A stretch of 6,160 nt of DNA from a virus. Both the position numbers and the translations under genes were made by a program. Numbering within the stretch: position 1 is the stretch's first letter; each line of letters opens with the position of its first letter. The notes beneath the pieces are model-generated. The model saw only the letters and a list, made by a program, of their open reading frames with translations, ran no database searches and was not told the DNA's origin. The stretch lies in the IMG/VR virus record IMGVR_UViG_3300020026_000001, positions 1 through 6,160 of that record; one strand, 5' to 3'. This document shows positions 1 to 6,160 of the stretch, piece by piece.

Positions 1-121
1 CTCGGTTATATGTATTGTTCGACGACGACACAGCCGAAGGATAGAACTGACTCTCAAAATAAGCATCGAGGAATTCGAGATTTCCGAATCTTTGCGAGAA
101 AAACCTCGACACGTCGCCGAA
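1..121. repeat. Terminal direct repeat, copy 1; marks the end redundancy of a circular 6039-nt genome
   Basis: Read directly: 1..121 (ctcggttatatgtattgttcgacg...acgtcgccgaa) matches 6040..6160 base for base. The offset is 6039. Confidence 0.95.
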
Positions 122-742
122 CTGAAGAGTATTATACGCGGTACCGGTGCTATTGGGAATCAGATACCAAGTACTGGGCCAAGCGAAAGAATAGAGTCCC
201 CACTGGGAATAACTATAGTAATTGCGGACAATGTCCCAATAAGCAAGATAAGAATCGGCAGTACACCAGCCTAAAGGATACGACAACTGGGCCGTTGTAA
301 GATTAGCAGACACCGGAACATTACTCGAGGTCGGAGTCGGTATAGACCCGGGAATAACACGCAACCAACGAAGCAGCGAATTAGAATACGGATAATTATC
401 AGACGTAAATTCGTACGAACCTGTAGAAGAAGCGGCAATAAAATTCAAACTCAAATCGTTCATATCAAACTTACTACTATTCGTTCGCATCTCCGGATGG
501 TACAGCTGTAAAGGCACCCAAAAACGGTGAAGTCGAATAGTATAGGGATTGAATGTCGGAACAGCAAGCGGGTTACTGCGAATATCAACTCCTTGTTCAA
601 TGGATACACGATCCCGGGCGTTAATAAAATCGATCCGCACCGGATACAAAATACCCGGTGTACACGTAAAGGCCTTACTCTCAGGGACATCATAACGAGA
701 GTAGCCATTAACGGCATGTGAGATAAAAGGTTGTTTTCCCAT
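1..742 (-). CDS. VP1: Major capsid protein VP1 (phiX174 F-like), N-terminal part; continues across the circular junction into 6039..4991
   Basis: The ATG is at 742..740. I checked all 247 minus-strand codons from 742 down to position 2 and found no stop. It translates as MGKQPFISHAVNGYSRYDVPESKAFTCTPGILYPVRIDFINARDRVSIEQGVDIRSNPLAVPTFNPYTIRLHRFWVPLQLYHPEMR...LAYWDIVRNYYSYSQW...FGD, then runs into VSRFFSQ. The frame matches ORF 4991..6151 (6151-6039=112; both 742 and 112 are 1 mod 3). The PTFNPY..RLHRFWVP and YWDIVRNYY blocks resemble conserved Microviridae capsid segments, from memory. The ORF track misses this piece because it runs off the window edge. Confidence 0.9.
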   Translation of the reverse strand, partial: MGKQPFISHAVNGYSRYDVPESKAFTCTPGILYPVRIDFINARDRVSIEQGVDIRSNPLAVPTFNPYTIRLHRFWVPLQLYHPEMRTNSSKFDMNDLSLNFIAASSTGSYEFTSDNYPYSNSLLRWLRVIPGSIPTPTSSNVPVSANLTTAQLSYPLGWCTADSYLAYWDIVRNYYSYSQWGLYSFAWPSTWYLIPNSTGTAYNTLQFGDVSRFFSQRFGNLEFLDAYFESQFYPSAVSSSNNTYNR

Positions 743-745
743 AAA

Positions 746-1816
746 TTAAATGTTTAGTTGAAGTTTATAGTGATCTCTCCAAAACTGAAGAATATTCATA
801 TCCAGAAAAACAGGGGGGTCAAAATCGGGCATCCTGCGAGAAGAAGCAGCGAAGCGCATCATTTGCTTCTGCTCCCACGTATACGACGCTCTACGGGATA
901 CGGCGGAACTGAGATTGAACCGCTTAACACACAAAGACACAACACGCCTAACCAGAGAAGACTTGCTAAAACGTGCATAAGAATCAGCAGCGGTAATCGA
1001 ACGACAAACTTCATCTTCAGGTTTGAGATACTTAAGATAGTATCGAGGAATCGAGTAATTGTAATCGATACGCTTCTCAAAATCAAAATAAGACCACGAC
1101 GAAGTACGAGCAGAAGGGCGAGGCATATAACCGAGAAAATCACCAACGCCAGCAGATACGAATTTTCGCGTATAACGGCGATGTTGGAGGAGGCAAGATA
1201 AAGGGACAGAGTTTCCATCTACAGTAACATATTTATCCGAAATTTCTTCGGGGTTGAATTGAATTTGTTTAGTAACATACTTAACGCAGTAACGAGCACG
1301 CTTATGGGTAGCTTTCGCCAGCCACACAAAACCGAGGTCTCGAACAGCAGAGCGAATCGTATTGTAGAGAACATTCGTGTCAAACAAGAAGCCATGAAAA
1401 TGCAAGCGGGGTTCGTTGCCCGTCTCAGGGTGCGTGCCAAACTCCTGAAAAAAGGCATGCTTGAACGAATGACCGAGTTTGTGACGCAGGCGTTCGTTGA
1501 ATCTCCGAATAAAACAGGACGGATCGATCAAAGCTTGGTCATAATACTTCGGAGCAATCGTTATCGTAATAAAAATAGCCTGCTGAGACTCGGCCTTACA
1601 GCGAGCAAGCTCGCGCTCTAAACGCACGAACCAATCATTGCGCTGACGACGCAGACAGTCTTCGCACCTTCCACAAGGAACCATGAGCCATTGGCGGGCA
1701 ATATCCCAGGGGCGGAGCGCCAAAGCCGACTTCGCAACGTCAGAGCCATCACGACAGGGATTCTTCTTGTCGAAATAGCGACGATTACGTATCCATATGG
1801 GAGACGAACAAGGCAT
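746..1816 (-). CDS. VP4: Rolling-circle replication initiator (Microviridae VP4, phiX174 gpA-like HUH endonuclease), 356 aa
   Basis: Starts with ATG at 1816..1814. Motif I-like FITITIA is at aa 82-88. The HUH motif is RLHFHGFLF, with H139 and H141 at codons 1402..1400 and 1396..1394 (checked). The two-tyrosine motif is YCVKYVTK, with Y176 and Y180 at codons 1291..1289 and 1279..1277 (checked). An upstream Cys cluster reads PCGRCEDCLRRQRNDW. Its stop codon lies 3 nt before the VP1 ATG. Confidence 0.93.
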   Translation of the reverse strand: MPCSSPIWIRNRRYFDKKNPCRDGSDVAKSALALRPWDIARQWLMVPCGRCEDCLRRQRNDWFVRLERELARCKAESQQAIFITITIAPKYYDQALIDPSCFIRRFNERLRHKLGHSFKHAFFQEFGTHPETGNEPRLHFHGFLFDTNVLYNTIRSAVRDLGFVWLAKATHKRARYCVKYVTKQIQFNPEEISDKYVTVDGNSVPLSCLLQHRRYTRKFVSAGVGDFLGYMPRPSARTSSWSYFDFEKRIDYNYSIPRYYLKYLKPEDEVCRSITAADSYARFSKSSLVRRVVSLCVKRFNLSSAVSRRASYTWEQKQMMRFAASSRRMPDFDPPVFLDMNILQFWRDHYKLQLNI

Positions 1817-2016
1817 TACAAGAAACTTCTAAGACAATCAAATCTAATAGCAGGATAATCGAGACGACAGCGAATGAGGTAATCATTAGCGGGCTCTTCG
1901 TTGGAAAACCAGGCGATAACAACTCGCTTCTTGCCTCGATATGCTCCAATAGAAAAACGGTAAGGAATACTGTCAATCACAGGAGAAAAACGGGGGCGAA
2001 AATCAAATATATCCAT
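1816..2016 (-). CDS. Hypothetical 66-aa protein upstream of, and overlapping, Rep
   Basis: Starts with ATG at 2016..2014. Its TAA stop (1818..1816) shares one base with the Rep ATG (TAATG). It is the first ORF after the 243-nt non-coding region. Its +1 frame is open (ORF 1785..1976), as in the confirmed genes. I recognise no motif in it. Confidence 0.5.
   Translation of the reverse strand: MDIFDFRPRFSPVIDSIPYRFSIGAYRGKKRVVIAWFSNEEPANDYLIRCRLDYPAIRFDCLRSFL
1839..1846 (-). promoter_or_regulatory. Possible -7 element (TAGATTTG, fits TAnnTTTG) 23 nt upstream of the Rep ATG
   Basis: Plus-strand CAAATCTA at 1839..1846 is a perfect match to the Bacteroides -7 consensus on the minus strand. No TTTG -33 partner sits at the expected spacing. 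Confidence 0.2.
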
Positions 2017-2259
2017 AATCGTAAAATAATACTTTGCGCTTCGAAAGGCGGTACTTTCGAGCGCGAGAACTACTTCGTTACGCCGGCCGACCGCCTAACG
2101 GCGGGGACGCTACGCGTCTTCGGCCTCCATGGCTCCACTTCGTGATTCTATATACCGGATAAATCCGGTGAGTCTACGGCAAAAACACCCAGGAGAGAAA
2201 AAACTCTCCCGGGGCTTCACAGTCAAAGAACTCTTCCACCAAGAGGGCGGGTTACAATT
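2017..2259 (-). other. Structured, G+C-rich non-coding region (hairpin cluster) between the small-ORF cassette and ORF66/Rep
   Basis: Hairpins read by eye, in plus coordinates. 2036..2064: 11 bp with one bulged T. 2091..2104: ccgcc/ggcgg. 2106..2118: gacgc/gcgtc. 2154..2169: accgga-taaa-tccggt. 2188..2213: 10 bp. 2231..2245: ctctt/aagag. Positions 2036..2120 are about 64% G+C by hand count. No ORF of any length is present. Confidence 0.75.
2180..2214 (-). terminator. Rho-independent terminator after the 2583..2260 ORF
   Basis: The minus-strand RNA reads cccgggagag-uuuuuu-cucuccuggg followed by UGUUUUUG. The stem is 10 bp with a 6-nt loop. Its one non-Watson-Crick pair is G.U on the minus strand but A.C on the plus strand, so the structure is strand-specific. 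It starts about 45 nt past the stop at 2262..2260. Confidence 0.6.
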
Positions 2260-2583
2260 TTAGTTCCTTTTCCTTTCTTCTTTCGGCGCGCTTTCATCGG
2301 AATCGAGATTAAAATCAAACATAAGGACAAGTGTATTGTCAAAAAAATCAACTCGGAAATGAGGTAGGCTACCGCAGGTAGTGACAAGTTCAAAAATTTC
2401 CGAATGATCGACGTAAAGCGAATCGCTAATGAAAGAACTGTTCAGAAAACGCGCGATAGGAGTATCCATAAGAGCACTGAGCGGAAGGGATACAAATTGA
2501 TTATCCTTGAGATAACCTACCTGGGCGAGGTCAATTTTGAGAGCCGGGTTGACGCGGCGAATAACAACGTGAATCTGTTTCAT
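2260..2583 (-). CDS. Hypothetical acidic-tailed protein, 107 aa from ATG 2583 (the track's 131-aa version starts at a TTG at 2655)
   Basis: ATG at 2583..2581 lies 11 nt after the stop of the upstream ORF. Sequence: MKQIHVVIRRVNPALKIDL...FDFNLDSDESAPKEERKRN. The 2655 start is TTG and would overlap the upstream gene by 61 nt. I recognise no family. Confidence 0.6.
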   Translation of the reverse strand: MKQIHVVIRRVNPALKIDLAQVGYLKDNQFVSLPLSALMDTPIARFLNSSFISDSLYVDHSEIFELVTTCGSLPHFRVDFFDNTLVLMFDFNLDSDESAPKEERKRN

Positions 2584-2594
2584 AACAATGTAAT

Positions 2595-2915
2595 TTAAAG
2601 TTTCGATTGAAATTTGAGGTAAAAACACCTCCAAGCGTCGGAATACTTTCTCCAAAAATCATAGCCCTCGGGCGTCGTGTCAAACCAGAAAGCGGTAGAA
2701 ATGAGGTAGGTAGGACCTAAACTCGGGTTGCAAAGAGAGCGCCGAATATGGGCACGCAAACGGTCGCGAAACCCCCCGTAGGGCGAAACGACGACATCGT
2801 AGTTCGTCTTAAAAGCGACGAATATTCCTTGACGAACGAGCCACTCGGTGAAAGCGTAATCGATAACGTCGACAATCAAATCGCCAGCCTTGAAATTTTT
2901 ACTTTCTTTTTTCAT
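2595..2915 (-). CDS. Hypothetical 106-aa, Trp/aromatic-rich protein
   Basis: Starts with ATG at 2915..2913 and stops with TAA at 2597..2595. It is preceded by the promoter-like motif. The C-terminal block reads AFWFDTTPEGYDFWRKYSDAWRCFY. It is not one of the canonical microvirus proteins that I recognise. Confidence 0.65.
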   Translation of the reverse strand: MKKESKNFKAGDLIVDVIDYAFTEWLVRQGIFVAFKTNYDVVVSPYGGFRDRLRAHIRRSLCNPSLGPTYLISTAFWFDTTPEGYDFWRKYSDAWRCFYLKFQSKL

Positions 2916-2941
2916 GGTATTGTGGTTATTGGTTTACAGCA

Positions 2942-2973
2942 CAAAGATACAACCAAAAAGAATAAACGGCAAA
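2942..2973 (-). promoter_or_regulatory. Bacteroides-type promoter candidate: TTTG (-33), 20-nt spacer, TATCTTTG (-7)
   Basis: The minus strand reads TTTGccgtttattctttttggttgTATCTTTG (plus CAAAGATA 2942..2949 and CAAA 2970..2973). This exactly fits the TTTG / TAnnTTTG consensus of Bacteroides primary-sigma promoters. It sits 27 nt upstream of ATG 2915, in the 81-nt gap after VP2. It is the only one of five TAnnTTTG matches I found on this strand that has a correctly spaced -33 element. Confidence 0.45.
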
Positions 2974-2996
2974 GTTCAAAAAGTCGGGGAACTTGT

Positions 2997-4259
2997 TCAA
3001 TTCCTCCTAAAATAGCTGCGGCGAGTGTATGTAGCACCAATTTGATCTCCGGAAGGGCCGTAAACATCGCGCATCTCATCATAGCCAGCAGGAGCAGAAG
3101 CGCCTTTGGTAAGCGCTACGCCGCTAATAGCAAGAGCACCGGCAAGAGCGGTGCGGGCCATCGAATAACCAAAAGCATTCTTCTCTGATCGATTAGAGAA
3201 CCATTGAGCGGAAAGGCCTTGCGACGCATTGGCGGCGGCCATACTCAAAAGATGTTCGTGTATCTGACGGCCGGTTAATTTAACAGTTTTACCAGTAGGC
3301 TTGCCTGATTCGGTGACCTGGGGGACTTCAATTTCGGCTTCCCAGTTGACGCGAAACCACTCACGAAGATCGGACAAACGAACTTTGGCTATATTGAACT
3401 CAGCTTTCGCGAGGTCGCCTGTAGCGGCAGAACTGTAGGCGGCAGCGTAATCGCGAGCAATTTGTGCGGCGTAAATTTGATCAAAATACTTCGAATTGAA
3501 TTCCTTAATCTGAACGGCTTCCTCGACATGCTTACTATATTGGGCAACAAAATCTTGAAATTTATAAGTAGCCATCAAATCTGCATATTCAGCGTCGGCC
3601 ATATGAATATTAGCAAGAGCGCGATTAAGATCAGCAAGAGCAGCAGCGTTATTGACGTTGTGCGTACGAATCTGCTTATCCAACTCGTCGATGTCCTTAC
3701 GCCATTCAACAGTATGTGTATTTCCACGAAGAAGATCAGCCTCGGCGTTGTCACGATTAGAAGCAGCATCGTTACGATCAACCGTAGATTTTGCAACCAT
3801 ATTCTGTGCAATAGCAGTAGGATCGGCAGCGGCAAAACCACCAGGGGCAACGGGAGCACCACCGGAAGGGCCAGAGGCGGAAGACATAGAGGCAGAGCCG
3901 CCCGACATGGTGGCATTGACGCCGACACCCGAAGAGCCTAAAACGGCCGCGGGCGTTACACCAGCCTTCAAATAGCGGTCGAAAACCTTCGAAGGGTCAT
4001 TATATGCATTCTCGTAATCAAACTGTTTCTGCCAATTAGCATAAGAAAGTTCAGACTGCTTTTGCATCTGCTCTAAGGCGTACTGCTGTTGAAGCTTCAT
4101 TTGTTTTTGCTGATAACGCCATTGGCGACGGGCGTTCATACCGCCAAAAAGCTGGCCGAGAGCGCCAGTAATAAGGCCGGTAGTACCGGTAGATGCAGCA
4201 GACTGACCAAGAGCCCGTCCAAAAGATGAGGAGGCGGCGGCAGCAACAGGAATAGCCAT
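2997..4259 (-). CDS. VP2: Minor capsid / DNA pilot protein (Microviridae VP2, phiX174 H-like), 420 aa
   Basis: Starts with ATG at 4259..4257. The N-terminus is Gly/Ala-rich (AAAASSSFGRALGQSAASTGTTGLITGALGQLFGG). A Gln-rich, coiled-coil-like stretch follows (QQKQMKLQQQYALEQMQKQ). Next comes NAYNDPSKVFDRYLKAGVTPAAVLG, which resembles the conserved ..AG.NP.. block of VP2 proteins from memory. A Gly/Ser/Ala low-complexity linker spans aa 108-146. The rest is a long alpha-helical-looking region. This composition and the gene's size are typical of pilot proteins. Confidence 0.8.
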   Translation of the reverse strand: MAIPVAAAASSSFGRALGQSAASTGTTGLITGALGQLFGGMNARRQWRYQQKQMKLQQQYALEQMQKQSELSYANWQKQFDYENAYNDPSKVFDRYLKAGVTPAAVLGSSGVGVNATMSGGSASMSSASGPSGGAPVAPGGFAAADPTAIAQNMVAKSTVDRNDAASNRDNAEADLLRGNTHTVEWRKDIDELDKQIRTHNVNNAAALADLNRALANIHMADAEYADLMATYKFQDFVAQYSKHVEEAVQIKEFNSKYFDQIYAAQIARDYAAAYSSAATGDLAKAEFNIAKVRLSDLREWFRVNWEAEIEVPQVTESGKPTGKTVKLTGRQIHEHLLSMAAANASQGLSAQWFSNRSEKNAFGYSMARTALAGALAISGVALTKGASAPAGYDEMRDVYGPSGDQIGATYTRRSYFRRN

Positions 4260-4260
4260 A

Positions 4261-4452
4261 CTAAATACGAGTTAAATTGTTAGAACGAATAATGTAATCA
4301 ACGCGGACAGTATCAATATGAACGCCGCTACGCTGCACTCTTGCTTGAGCCGAACAAGACGAAAGGAAAAAAGCAGCCAACGCAGCAATAATAGATGAAA
4401 CGAGCGTCCAAAAAGCCTTTGATTTATAAAACGGTTGTTTGACGTCTGACAT
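4261..4452 (-). CDS. Small predicted lipoprotein (63 aa; signal peptide plus lipobox LSSC), translationally coupled to VP2
   Basis: Sequence: MSDVKQPFYKSK-AFWTLVSSIIAALAAFFL-SSC. It has a basic n-region, an 18-residue hydrophobic core and the lipobox L30-S31-S32-C33 (Cys codon 4356..4354, checked). That leaves a 31-residue mature peptide. Its TAG stop (4263..4261) lies 1 nt before the VP2 ATG. Confidence 0.6.
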   Translation of the reverse strand: MSDVKQPFYKSKAFWTLVSSIIAALAAFFLSSCSAQARVQRSGVHIDTVRVDYIIRSNNLTRI

Positions 4453-4681
4453 GATATTAAAAATTTAAGGGAAGCTACGGTGCCGCACCCCCACTTCGTT
4501 CGGGGCGGTTCTCCGAACCGCGAAATGCGTCACCTCGCCACAACGGTGTAAACAATTGAATAAAGAACGATAGAAAAATGCGCGACCTCTCCCGCAGTCG
4601 CTACCAATAACCTTCAACAATTCACGAACTCTTGCAGAAGGGGTTCGCGCACGTAGCATATATCGTCAAGTAAAGAGGGTA
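4453..4681 (-). other. Second structured, G+C-rich region (hairpin cluster), nominally intergenic
   Basis: Hairpins in plus coordinates. 4505..4521: gcggttc-tcc-gaaccgc, 7 bp. 4623..4649: 7 bp, with one pair that is G.U on the minus strand and A.C on the plus strand. 4582..4601: gcgac/gtcgc, followed on the minus strand by GCAUUUUU. 4489..4505: cccc/gggg alternative. Positions 4471..4550 are about 64% G+C by hand count, against about 32% for 4261..4320. Confidence 0.7.
4465..4659 (-). CDS. Doubtful arginine-rich 64-aa ORF inside the structured region (possible J/VP8-like DNA-binding protein, or non-coding)
   Basis: It has an ATG at 4659..4657 and 12 Arg in 64 residues (MLRARTPSARVRELLKV...AVRRTAPNEVGVRHRSFP). 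However, it exactly spans the hairpin cluster, where high G+C alone would give CGN-rich frames. It also contains a weak terminator-like hairpin. Confidence 0.2.
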   Translation of the reverse strand: MLRARTPSARVRELLKVIGSDCGRGRAFFYRSLFNCLHRCGEVTHFAVRRTAPNEVGVRHRSFP

Positions 4682-4978
4682 CTATTTTTCTTCAAGTTTA
4701 GGGGGTTTCGCAGCGGCCTTCGATCTATCTATCTCTGAATCAATGAGTTCCTGGCCAACCTCGAGACCGTCGAACTTATCCATACGAGAGAATGAGTTAG
4801 GGTCGAAATCAATCTCGGGGTCGAACCTTTCACCCTTATCGAAATCAGACGGGGACGCCTCGACATCTGGGCGACCAGGAAGGACATCAACAGAACCAGA
4901 ACCGTTAAGAACGGAAAGAATACGCTGACCACGAGAAATATAGGTAGGAGCGTCCTCAAGTAACCAATTAAGTGCCAT
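4682..4978 (-). CDS. Hypothetical acidic 98-aa protein immediately downstream of VP1 (possible scaffolding-type protein)
   Basis: ATG at 4978..4976 lies 12 nt after the VP1 stop. It has about 21 Asp/Glu against 12 Lys/Arg (DFDKGERFDPEIDFDPNSFSRMDKFDGLEVGQELIDSEIDR) and a Lys/Pro tail (AAAKPPKLEEK). I recognise no family. Confidence 0.6.
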   Translation of the reverse strand: MALNWLLEDAPTYISRGQRILSVLNGSGSVDVLPGRPDVEASPSDFDKGERFDPEIDFDPNSFSRMDKFDGLEVGQELIDSEIDRSKAAAKPPKLEEK

Positions 4979-4990
4979 AAAACCAGTGTA

Positions 4991-6160
4991 TTAACGATTA
5001 GACAAACGGGTTGCAAATGTTTTATTAACCAGGTTCTTCTTCTGAACAGAATACGAAAGATTGACAAAGAAGTTATCTTCCAGCTTGGAGGAAAACGGGG
5101 AGTTTACCTGATCAATATCCACGAACAAAAGGGAATAATACTTATTATAGCTCGCCGACAGAACACGCTGTTGAACCCAATAAGAATAAAGAGGGATACT
5201 GTTATAGGCTTTTTGGAATCGAGACAGCTGGCCAAGAACCTCGTCAAACGAGGACCGAAACTCATTGAAACACGGTTCGTAAGCCACAGCTTCTGAGGCC
5301 GATGTGGTTCCGAATCCGAATTGGAATCCGGGAACATCCTGGTACCCAATATCATTATAGATCGGATTAAAATAATCGGCACCAGTATAATGGAGATAGT
5401 CAGGGTAAACACCTGCCCAATAGTAGACGGGGCGAATGCTCAGCATATCAATCATATAGCCAGGCTCGCGGAAGTAATAAGACTGTCGGCGACCAAGACG
5501 ATCATTGAAGGCGATAGCACCACCTTGCTGTCCCAAGGGACCATTTAAGCTCGAACCGGAAAAATTGTTTCCTCCAGCCTGATTCATCACAACCTGAACG
5601 TTAACAGTCTGAGATGCGCTAAACAACAATTTGGGCCGATCGACGTGTTCGATTTTCGAAGCAAAAAAGGTTTCCAACCAGTCACTGTAACGAGAACCTC
5701 CAGCGCCAAGCAAATCCTTGTATTCTTGAAGACGCGAAGCAATAGCCAGCTGCGGTACGGTTGAGACGCCGGACATGGAGACGCCTTCGGAGCTACCAAC
5801 AGGAAGCAATCGACTATAACGATCGGGATTCGAAGGTATAACGGCCATCGGATGGGCGACAAGGAACGATCCAAGCGTAGTAAGAGTCGTAGCGGCAGCG
5901 CCAGTAGCGAATTGACTTGCAGGACCCGCGGTAGTCAGCGTAGTATTTCCGGGATAGATGGTAGAGACGGGGTAGCCATCCTTAGATGCGGTAATCGTAG
6001 CGCCAAGGTCTGAAAGCAATATCTGAGAAAAAAGATTTCCTCGGTTATATGTATTGTTCGACGACGACACAGCCGAAGGATAGAACTGACTCTCAAAATA
6101 AGCATCGAGGAATTCGAGATTTCCGAATCTTTGCGAGAAAAACCTCGACACGTCGCCGAA
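4991..6160 (-). CDS. VP1: Major capsid protein VP1, C-terminal part (5' end lies across the junction; full gene is 742..1 joined to 6039..4991, 596 aa)
   Basis: This is the longest ORF in the window. It is open to the window edge and stops with TAA at 4993..4991. The 'M' the track places at 6151 is really an internal GTG (Val) codon. The joined length of 596 aa fits large-type microvirus capsid proteins. Confidence 0.92.
   Translation of the reverse strand, partial: FGDVSRFFSQRFGNLEFLDAYFESQFYPSAVSSSNNTYNRGNLFSQILLSDLGATITASKDGYPVSTIYPGNTTLTTAGPASQFATGAAATTLTTLGSFLVAHPMAVIPSNPDRYSRLLPVGSSEGVSMSGVSTVPQLAIASRLQEYKDLLGAGGSRYSDWLETFFASKIEHVDRPKLLFSASQTVNVQVVMNQAGGNNFSGSSLNGPLGQQGGAIAFNDRLGRRQSYYFREPGYMIDMLSIRPVYYWAGVYPDYLHYTGADYFNPIYNDIGYQDVPGFQFGFGTTSASEAVAYEPCFNEFRSSFDEVLGQLSRFQKAYNSIPLYSYWVQQRVLSASYNKYYSLLFVDIDQVNSPFSSKLEDNFFVNLSYSVQKKNLVNKTFATRLSNR
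6040..6160. repeat. Terminal direct repeat, copy 2 (identical to 1..121)
   Basis: Same comparison as copy 1. The repeat runs to the last base of the window. Confidence 0.95.

Follow-up and report, generated by a model that had tools for sequence, protein, structure and literature searches.

A 63-codon gene lying immediately upstream of the DNA pilot protein gene VP2 is, judged by comparative sequence analysis, a real core gene of a clade of gut microviruses, with both halves of its protein under strong purifying selection. The gene, here called lipo63, encodes a predicted product that at the sequence level looks in every respect like a Sec/LspA (type II) prolipoprotein, and it represents a new, uncharacterized family of small putative phage lipoproteins with unusual features. 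We tentatively favor a role for lipo63 as an exported envelope effector of lysis or release, acting alone or with a second membrane protein that would be encoded within the Rep gene.

The window analyzed is a stretch of 6,160 nucleotides (positions 1 to 6,160 of IMG/VR virus record IMGVR_UViG_3300020026_000001), and it represents a circular genome of 6039 nt, since its first and last 121 bases are identical. Every gene of the genome lies on the minus strand (Table 1), including lipo63, for which an initial annotation made from the letters of the window had given no strand. The relatives in GenBank are uncultured Microviridae, recovered from the feces of pigs, deer, rodents, lemurs, tortoises, and humans, and an identical 63-aa lipo63 protein is also found on a Human Microbiome Project metagenome contig. 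No Shine-Dalgarno motif precedes any of the window genes, lipo63 and VP2 included, and their leaders are AT-rich; genes of this kind, lacking the motif and preceded by AT-rich leaders, are typical of Bacteroidota. An Rfam scan of the whole window gave no match. Microviruses are among the most abundant gut phages (PMC3394797).

Table 1. Features of the microvirus genome, in window coordinates.
Feature	Position	Strand	Description
VP1	wraps window ends	minus	596 aa; Phage_F, phrog_514
Acidic ORF	4682-4978	minus	98 aa
Intergenic region upstream of lipo63	4453-4681	minus	upstream-region alignment, terminator scan
Highly conserved block	4646-4675		in lipo63 upstream region
Terminator-like hairpin and T-run	4572-4601		in lipo63 upstream region
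Variable GC-rich insertion	4466-4560		95 nt; in 15 loci at 95-98% identity
lipo63	4261-4452	minus	63-aa ORF, 63 codons plus TAG; predicted prolipoprotein
lipo63 signal peptide, codons 1-32	4357-4452	minus	K-rich n-region, h-region FWTLVSSIIAALAAFFL, lipobox L-S-S; most conserved part of the family
Cys33 codon TGT	4354-4356	minus	predicted lipidation site, mature +1 residue
lipo63 mature peptide after Cys33, codons 34-63	4264-4353	minus	SAQARVQRSGVHIDTVRVDYIIRSNNLTRI; beta-strand-like alternation
lipo63/VP2 stop-restart junction TAG-T-ATG	4257-4263	minus	VP2 ATG 4259-4257
VP2 DNA pilot protein	2997-4259	minus	420 aa; phrog_8689 'pilot protein for DNA ejection', E 5.2e-8
ORFs of 106, 131, and 66 aa		minus	
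Basic gene, J/VP8-like	2223-2297	minus	MKARRKKKGKGTKIVTRPLGGRVL; 24 codons, own ATG
VP4/Rep	746-1816	minus	PF23343, phrog_942
Embedded ORF in VP4/Rep, +1 frame	859-1218	minus	119 codons, very hydrophobic

Conservation was assessed in 80 IMG/VR genomes, which were retrieved through VP2 and thus independently of lipo63, together with GenBank relatives, giving 85 loci. The gene was found directly upstream of VP2 in 81 of these, which are all of the loci that cover the site, and 71 of the 81 orthologues contain exactly 63 codons, with start, stop, and length conserved. Across the 71 orthologues pN is 0.080 and pS is 0.618 (dN/dS ~0.06), so that synonymous sites are near saturation; nearly every codon varies synonymously and 30-odd residues are fixed. 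Cys33 is invariant in 71/71, and the fixed residues of the mature part are G43, H45, D47, T48, V49, R50, D52, Y53, I55, R56, and S57. The selection on the protein and the conserved gene boundaries bear out the proposal in the initial annotation that this small frame is a real gene and is really translated. The expectation that homologues occupy the same position holds for all 81 site-covering relatives but fails in a sister group, where the module is found upstream of Rep.

lipo63 is the best-conserved protein of the clade. Its median identity to the window protein is 89%, compared with 87% for VP4/Rep, 82% for the 98-aa protein, 70% for VP1, and 66% for VP2. The protein is 84-95% identical across genomes whose VP1 is ~68% or ~89% identical and whose VP2 is 45-95% identical, and it stays at 84-95% where VP2 is only 45-57% identical. 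It tracks neither the VP1 types (~68% and ~89%) nor the VP2 types (47, 55, 73, and 92%).

lipo63 runs from an ATG at 4452-4450 to a TAG at 4263-4261 on the minus strand, encoding the 63-residue protein MSDVKQPFYKSKAFWTLVSSIIAALAAFFLSSCSAQARVQRSGVHIDTVRVDYIIRSNNLTRI. The n-region (residues 1-13) contains three lysines (K5, K10, and K12) and one aspartate, while the h-region (residues 14-30) has a mean Kyte-Doolittle hydropathy of 2.18 and contains no charged residue, which gives the protein the positively charged n-region and the uncharged h-region of 7-22 residues expected of type II lipoproteins. The lipobox is L30-S31-S32-C33, and the mature part including Cys33 comprises 31 residues. Two rule-based patterns, PROSITE PS51257 and G+LPPv2, were applied ([LVI][ASTVI][GAS]C, with the Cys at position 15-35), and lipo63 satisfies both. 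PS51257 was passed by 80 of the 81 orthologues versus 5 of the 2015 remaining ORFs (40 aa or longer) in the related genomes, a frequency far above chance, and G+LPPv2 was passed by 81/81 orthologues versus 7/2015 control ORFs. The 63-aa ORF with a type II signal peptide described in the initial annotation, with its K-rich n-region, hydrophobic core, LSSC lipobox, and Cys33, is thus recovered by both patterns, and the coordinates agree with its mature peptide of 31 residues.

The protein has a single hydrophobic segment (residues 12-35), the mean hydropathy of the C-terminal half being -0.24, and the distribution of charges places the C-terminal part outside the cytoplasm. An AF2 model built from a 21-sequence alignment predicts a helix at residues 12-36 with a pLDDT of ~87; the rest is not confident, with a pLDDT of <50 in the mature part. 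No acidic residue is present at positions +2 to +5 after Cys33.

We found 385 close database homologues of lipo63, among them one nr entry auto-named 'MAG TPA: lipoprotein [Microviridae sp.]'. No family in Pfam (at E<=0.1 for the window protein), PHROG, or NCBIfam matches the protein, and no published description of it was found in the Microviridae literature searched for lipoprotein, lipobox, and lysis. A profile search of 1.84 billion representative proteins returned only 79 clusters, all in microvirus-sized contexts. The profile also matched the giant repeat proteins P0219 and P0225, which contain fn3 and Schlafen repeats and were rejected as chance beta-strand matches.

The Cys aligns in 264 of 270 distinct homologues; register errors, frameshifts, or one non-member account for the remaining 6. 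Within the 264, only S, G, or A occurs at -1, and the lipobox varies only within the allowed residues with few exceptions. These include six clusters of family 2, a group that shares the n- and h-regions and the Cys of lipo63 but has a different mature peptide (TTRHYVVQSASSVKSGDTTRTTITYEQVGNFKRP); they carry LESC, a non-canonical lipobox with E at -2. Phage lipoboxes can deviate from the consensus and yet work (PMC6139136). At positions +2 to +5, D or E occurs in 0/264 homologues. Acidic residues after the Cys direct surface export in Bacteroidota, and their absence argues for a product that faces the periplasm.

The family-wide invariant residues are S11, K12, F14, W15, T16, L17, A24, L25, A27, F29, and C33, with D47 alone in the mature part, and the signal-peptide half is accordingly more conserved than the mature half. 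Synonymous sites of the signal-peptide half are nearly saturated, which shows that the constraint acts on the peptide. This greater conservation suggests that the signal-peptide helix is itself functional.

A single base (4260) separates the lipo63 stop from the VP2 ATG, as had been noted at the outset, and the resulting junction, TAGTATG, is kept as TA(G/A)TATG in nearly all of the 63-aa orthologues. In other relatives the two genes are separated by 2 nt (family 2 and loci L101, L105, and L140) or 11 nt (L003), or they overlap by 17 nt (L085). The stop-N-ATG arrangement behind the proposed coupling to VP2 is kept in nearly all close relatives, but such coupling is not a property of the whole family, given the position of the module upstream of Rep in the sister group.

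The region upstream of lipo63 contains, in addition to the elements listed in Table 1, an AT-rich leader. The in-frame extension upstream of the lipo63 start varies in length among relatives (1, 4, 14, 17, 20, 23, 38, 39, and more). A '64-aa ORF' at 4465-4659 and the 100-aa versions of the protein in databases were rejected as coding because the length of the extension is not constant and the region, which contains hairpins, is conserved as a non-coding block. Folding of the region is unremarkable (z = -1.7), a sigma-70 promoter scan gave chance-level results, and the Bacteroides -7 motif TAnnTTTG shows no conservation upstream of lipo63.

In the sister group (type B), VP1 starts with MALMFLSRR and the lipoprotein module lies just upstream of Rep, not VP2. 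A search of 185,579 species genomes with the lipoprotein alignment returned one locus, a microvirus of this sister group integrated in the genome of Alistipes montrealensis kh20. Its gene order is module-tail ORF, Rep, VP1, 112-aa ORF, VP2, and it is flanked by recA, relA/spoT-like, and HIT-family genes. A VP1 probe found no prophage in the same 185,579 genomes, and no integrated genome of the window type was found there. The relative integrated as a prophage in Alistipes points to Bacteroidota as the host phylum.

The exit routes known for microviruses are the E protein of phiX174 and a few acquired M15 peptidases. In the present genome, no canonical ORF contains a peptidase or endolysin domain (Pfam), no endolysin or holin family is matched (Pfam, PHROG), and no peptidase or endolysin is annotated in the GenBank relatives. 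Some other gut microviruses do carry M15 peptidases (PMC3394797; PMC13064476). The initial annotation was right that a peptidase is absent, but its further claim that no lysis gene is evident elsewhere in the genome does not hold. Overprinted genes were explicitly omitted from an earlier survey (PMC9239249), and when all alternative-frame ORFs were screened here for conservation, ORF 859-1218, embedded in VP4/Rep, stood out, being kept open in the +1 frame in 80 of 81 relatives. Synonymous codon diversity of Rep is 0.21 inside 859-1218 versus 0.47 outside it (Mann-Whitney p = 4.5e-24), and the start and C-terminal end (PPYPVERRIRGSKSK) of the predicted protein are conserved, the most divergent genomes included. 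Hydropathy analysis predicts at least two strong TM segments and a basic C-terminal end, with a net charge of +9. These patterns place the ORF under clear dual-coding constraint. Two other alternative-frame ORFs, 4729-5067 (over the 98-aa gene) and 3575-3928 (in VP2), were rejected as lysis genes, being open in only 7-13% of relatives.

ORF 859-1218 shares with phiX174 E the layout of an overprinted small membrane protein (E-in-D type) and is at least as good an E-like lysis candidate as lipo63. The case for lipo63 as the lysis gene by default consequently no longer holds, and the embedded ORF is a rival or a possible partner for this role. Overall, the reading of lipo63 as a candidate lysis or exclusion factor in the initial annotation is partly supported. 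lipo63 also resembles phiX174 E in being a small microvirus protein with an N-terminal membrane helix under sequence-specific constraint in a genome without a murein hydrolase (PMC3394797). E, however, is overprinted in the scaffold gene D, has no lipobox, and is N-out, whereas lipo63 is free-standing, has a lipobox, and shows no constraint at synonymous sites (pS 0.62), so that E-type overprinting does not apply to it.

By size and chemistry, and without homology, the closest functional analogue of lipo63 appears to be the colicin-release lipoprotein. In colicin lysis proteins a lipopeptide of ~30 residues causes quasi-lysis without a murein hydrolase (PMC9517006). Like lipo63, the colicin lysis or bacteriocin release proteins (BRPs) are tiny prolipoproteins with a mature lipopeptide of ~30 residues (31 in lipo63); both are expressed downstream in an operon alongside the cargo gene, and the members of each family closely resemble one another in sequence. 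The signal peptide of the BRPs is stable and adds to their killing effect, behavior that would fit the over-conserved helix of lipo63. The colicin proteins differ in being plasmid-encoded in Enterobacteriaceae, whereas lipo63 is virus-encoded in Bacteroidota, and there is no sequence similarity: neither Lysis_col nor any other Pfam family matched any of 21 lipo63 family members at E<=10.

In the effector reading that we tentatively prefer, the precursor would insert in the membrane of the Bacteroidota host with its N-terminus in the cytoplasm, Cys33 would be diacylglyceryl-modified, and cleavage would occur between S32 and C33. The product would be a lipopeptide of 31 residues located on the envelope's periplasmic side, and the 32-residue signal-peptide helix may remain in the inner membrane. 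The conserved helix, with its small-xxx-small motif (A23..A27), is envisaged to bind a conserved host membrane protein, and a lipid-anchored beta-hairpin to bind a periplasmic or outer-membrane partner. Expression would be tied to that of VP2 by termination-reinitiation at TAGTATG. The protein would be needed in every lytic cycle, where it would take part in host lysis or release either by itself, in the manner of the colicin-release lipoproteins, or with the multi-TM protein of ORF 859-1218.

Since lipo63 is universal and highly constrained, an essential role in the lytic cycle fits better than an accessory one, and its indifference to swaps of VP1 and VP2 type fits a function exercised in every cycle and aimed at a conserved target. 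Also in favor of the effector reading, family 2 retains the Cys and the helix despite having a different mature part, the genome has no peptidase or endolysin, and the colicin lysis proteins provide a precedent (PMC9517006). Against a lysis role, the high conservation of lipo63 is the opposite of what is seen for known single-gene lysis proteins, which evolve fast and are poorly conserved (PMC7693330), and ORF 859-1218 is an equally good or better E-like candidate. The VP1-like AT-rich leader and the coupling to a structural gene suggest substantial, non-delayed expression, which would be awkward for a lysis trigger, and a periplasmic lysis factor leaves unexplained why the module forms one ORF with a J-like, DNA-packaging-type tail in sister genomes. 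The lipoprotein part of the model is itself opposed by the LESC of six family-2 clusters and by the A-x-A that directly follows the Cys in family 1, at which cleavage by signal peptidase I (SPase I) is conceivable.

Superinfection exclusion or protection of progeny is possible, though we consider it rather unlikely. On this view the lipopeptide in the periplasm would attach either to the receptor on its periplasmic face, in the manner of T5 Llp and Cor, or to the conduit formed by incoming VP2, and DNA ejection by later virions, or by virions that meet debris, would be stopped. The Ltp lipoprotein of phage TP-J34 blocks a tape-measure channel in this way. Llp and Cor are small phage lipoproteins that act from the periplasmic side on an envelope protein (PMC9586334), and lipo63 resembles them as a small, phage-encoded lipoprotein predicted to face the periplasm, consistent with the lack of acidic residues at +2 to +5 in all 264 sequences. 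In this clade lipo63 adjoins the pilot gene VP2, whose product has invariant stretches that a conserved peptide could recognize (e.g. WRYQQKQM and NWQKQFDY); at least one relative is a prophage, a setting in which exclusion genes are common; and the sole PADLOC match of lipo63, a weak one, is to the candidate defense family PDC-M02A (E 0.003-0.04). The mature part of T5 Llp is about twice as long as that of lipo63, has a folded domain with a Cys11-Cys58 disulfide, and is paired with a particular receptor-binding protein. lipo63 differs in having no second Cys, in showing no such cognate pairing or co-variation with VP1 or VP2 types, and in behaving as a universal core gene, the most conserved of the clade. 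No PHROG or Pfam match of any kind, to Llp or Cor included, was obtained for lipo63. Exclusion also leaves unexplained why the signal peptide is conserved above the mature part, and it has to contend with the position of the gene away from VP2 in sister genomes and with the absence of integrated window-type genomes among the 185,579 species genomes.

The structure of the module in the sister group raises another reading, which we judge unlikely, in which lipo63 would be an inner-membrane-anchored morphogenesis or DNA-packaging factor: an uncleaved anchor or precursor, tethered by its helix, would work with a J-like peptide, and the lipobox would be secondary or regulatory. In 10/10 type-B genomes the module, a linker, and a J-like tail form one ORF. 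The linker (~110 aa) is S/T-rich, poorly conserved, and overprinted on a gene of ~135 aa, and the fused ORF ends in the conserved basic tail RRGGRRKGKPKPKxKxIPLGGSHL. Given the overlapped gene, the chance of the fused frame being open is 0.05-0.48 per genome, and that it stays open across several divergent lineages suggests selection on the fused frame. In locus L094 the module and tail genes are separate but adjacent, and the standing of the helix as the most conserved part, as well as conservation at the level of a core gene such as Rep, would also suit a tether of this kind. In the window, however, this tail is encoded on its own, 2 kb from lipo63, by the 24-codon basic gene, which is conserved with its own ATG in 63 of the 85 loci. 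The invariant Cys and the always-small -1 residue are the signature of LspA processing and not of a plain anchor, the charges put the C-terminal part outside the cytoplasm, where a DNA-binding tail would have no role, and the fused ORF might be read only in part.

A more specific form of the effector reading, which we regard as a long shot, is that lipo63 is a lipidated 'protein antibiotic' and a new type of single-gene lysis protein, one whose helix and lipid-anchored hairpin would jam a conserved machine of the Bacteroidota envelope, and which could act with the Rep-overprinted membrane protein. Candidate targets would be lipoprotein maturation and trafficking (Lgt, LspA, or Lol) or the lipid II step.

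Spanins were also considered. Rz1-type o-spanins, which occur in phages of diderm hosts, are small lipoproteins of the outer membrane whose gene is packed tightly against that of a protein with an N-terminal TM segment and a coiled coil (PMC6139136). lipo63 is alike in its small size and its tight packing against the gene of a TM and coiled-coil protein (VP2), but it differs in having no proline-rich region, no intermolecular Cys, no holin/endolysin cassette, and no Pfam or PHROG spanin match. Spanins act only after the murein has been degraded. A two-component spanin was ruled out, since the neighbor is the pilot protein VP2 and not an i-spanin, and the sister-group module is not beside VP2. 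A unimolecular spanin of the T1 gp11 type was also rejected, because lipo63 has only one hydrophobic segment and no C-terminal TM.

Cleavage by SPase I at A-Q-A|R, four residues past the Cys, would release a free 26-residue periplasmic peptide, an outcome that we consider very improbable. A small-x-small motif does occur at +2 to +5 in 213 of the 264 homologues, with SAQA and AAQA dominating, but family 2 (TARH, TTRH) has no acceptable -1 residue there and yet keeps the Cys and lipobox, and the invariant feature is the Cys, not A-x-A. Finally, although many GenBank relatives lack an annotation for lipo63 or absorb it into a VP2 call that extends too far, a chance ORF or annotation artifact in a non-coding spacer can be dismissed with near certainty given its dN/dS of ~0.06, its pS of 0.62, and its presence in 81/81 relatives.

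This clade of human and animal fecal microviruses thus combines the lack of a hydrolase with two conserved, envelope-directed small proteins, lipo63, which exceeds the capsid protein in conservation, and a membrane protein hidden in Rep. Either protein, or the pair, makes the question of microvirus lysis directly testable in Bacteroidales. If lipo63 is a small effector acting on a conserved Bacteroidota envelope function, it would be a useful probe or an antibacterial lead. If it serves exclusion, Microviridae would gain their first known system of this kind, and if it proves to be a 'protein antibiotic', microviruses other than the phiX174 group would have their first defined lysis mechanism.

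The VP4/Rep replication gene contains an overlapping gene of 119 codons, whose frame is uninterrupted in 80 of 81 relatives. Synonymous diversity of Rep falls to 0.21 exactly over this frame, compared with 0.47 otherwise (p = 4.5e-24). The predicted product is strongly hydrophobic, has at least two transmembrane segments and ends in a basic C-terminus, PPYPVERRIRGSRSK. Searches of Pfam, NCBIfam and PADLOC gave no match, and the single PHROG match (phrog_25470, E 0.023) was not significant. The product is a candidate E-like lysis protein, or else a K-like membrane protein.

Features in the window and in sister genomes
Feature	Location	Strand	Remarks
Overlapping 119-codon gene, +1 frame of VP4/Rep (746-1816)	859-1218	minus	open frame; dip in Rep synonymous diversity
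24-codon gene, MKARRKKKGKGTKIVTRPLGGRVL	2223-2297	minus	conserved; overlaps end of the 131-aa ORF between VP2 and Rep
Hairpin and T-run	4572-4601	minus	GCGACTGCGGGAGAGGTCGC GCATTTTTCT
Stretch within the conserved non-coding block	4646-4675	minus	CTTTACTTGACGATATATGCTACGTGCGCG
Fused module-linker-tail ORF	L086 4097-4672; L087 4688-5320; L089 7977-8585; also L090-L096, L113

Of 85 related loci, 63 retain the 24-codon gene with an ATG of its own. Its product is similar to J and VP8, the small basic DNA-packaging proteins of other microviruses; a far less likely reading is a cationic 'disruptin' that acts on the outer membrane (bioRxiv 10.1101/515445). A J-like basic tail is also found in the sister group of microviruses, where the part homologous to lipo63 (the 63-codon predicted prolipoprotein gene upstream of the VP2 pilot protein gene), an S/T-rich linker of ~110 aa and the tail form one ORF of 190-210 aa that adjoins Rep on its upstream side in all ten sister genomes. 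The linker is overprinted, the fused ORF being overlapped in another frame by a gene of ~135 aa.

Many relatives deposited in GenBank leave the lipoprotein gene unannotated, and in others it is engulfed by a VP2 call prolonged upstream in a different frame, as in the 541-aa 'VP2' of MG945498. Deposits in which the gene is unannotated or swallowed include, besides MG945498, MG945680/683/716, MG945664 and others.

Upstream of lipo63, the non-coding block that follows the acidic 98-aa gene (4572-4681, minus strand) shows higher conservation than most of the coding sequence. Its stretch at 4646-4675 is reminiscent of the phiX174 origin core ACTTGATAT, and together with the hairpin it is a candidate replication origin plus terminator or complementary-strand origin. 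This conserved block is separated from the lipo63 leader by a 95-nt GC-rich and hairpin-rich insertion (4466-4560), of which 15 related genomes carry a same-site copy at 95-98% identity, far above that of the flanks, while the others lack it. The insertion has no match in Rfam and could be an indel that spread recently, or a small mobile element. A 64-aa ORF at 4465-4659 is spurious and owes its existence to this insertion.

An exact 121-nt direct repeat at the window ends (1-121 and 6040-6160) is an assembly overlap; the genome is circular, of 6039 nt, with the VP1 capsid gene spanning the junction. Across 80 related loci (L005-L084), identity values split VP1 into two classes (about 68% and about 89%) and VP2 into about four (about 47, 55, 73 and 92%). 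The two sets of classes sort independently of each other and Rep and lipo63 are uniform, a pattern that indicates frequent modular recombination inside the clade.

One sister locus, L089, is an integrated microvirus prophage of Alistipes montrealensis kh20 (NZ_JAGYXY010000001 123510-139662), with the virus at about 7935-12793 of the locus in the order module-tail ORF, Rep, VP1, 112-aa ORF and VP2. Host genes lie on either side, and an HTH-protein gene (7101-7565) is positioned just upstream. This prophage gives the host phylum, Bacteroidota, for the virus group of the window.
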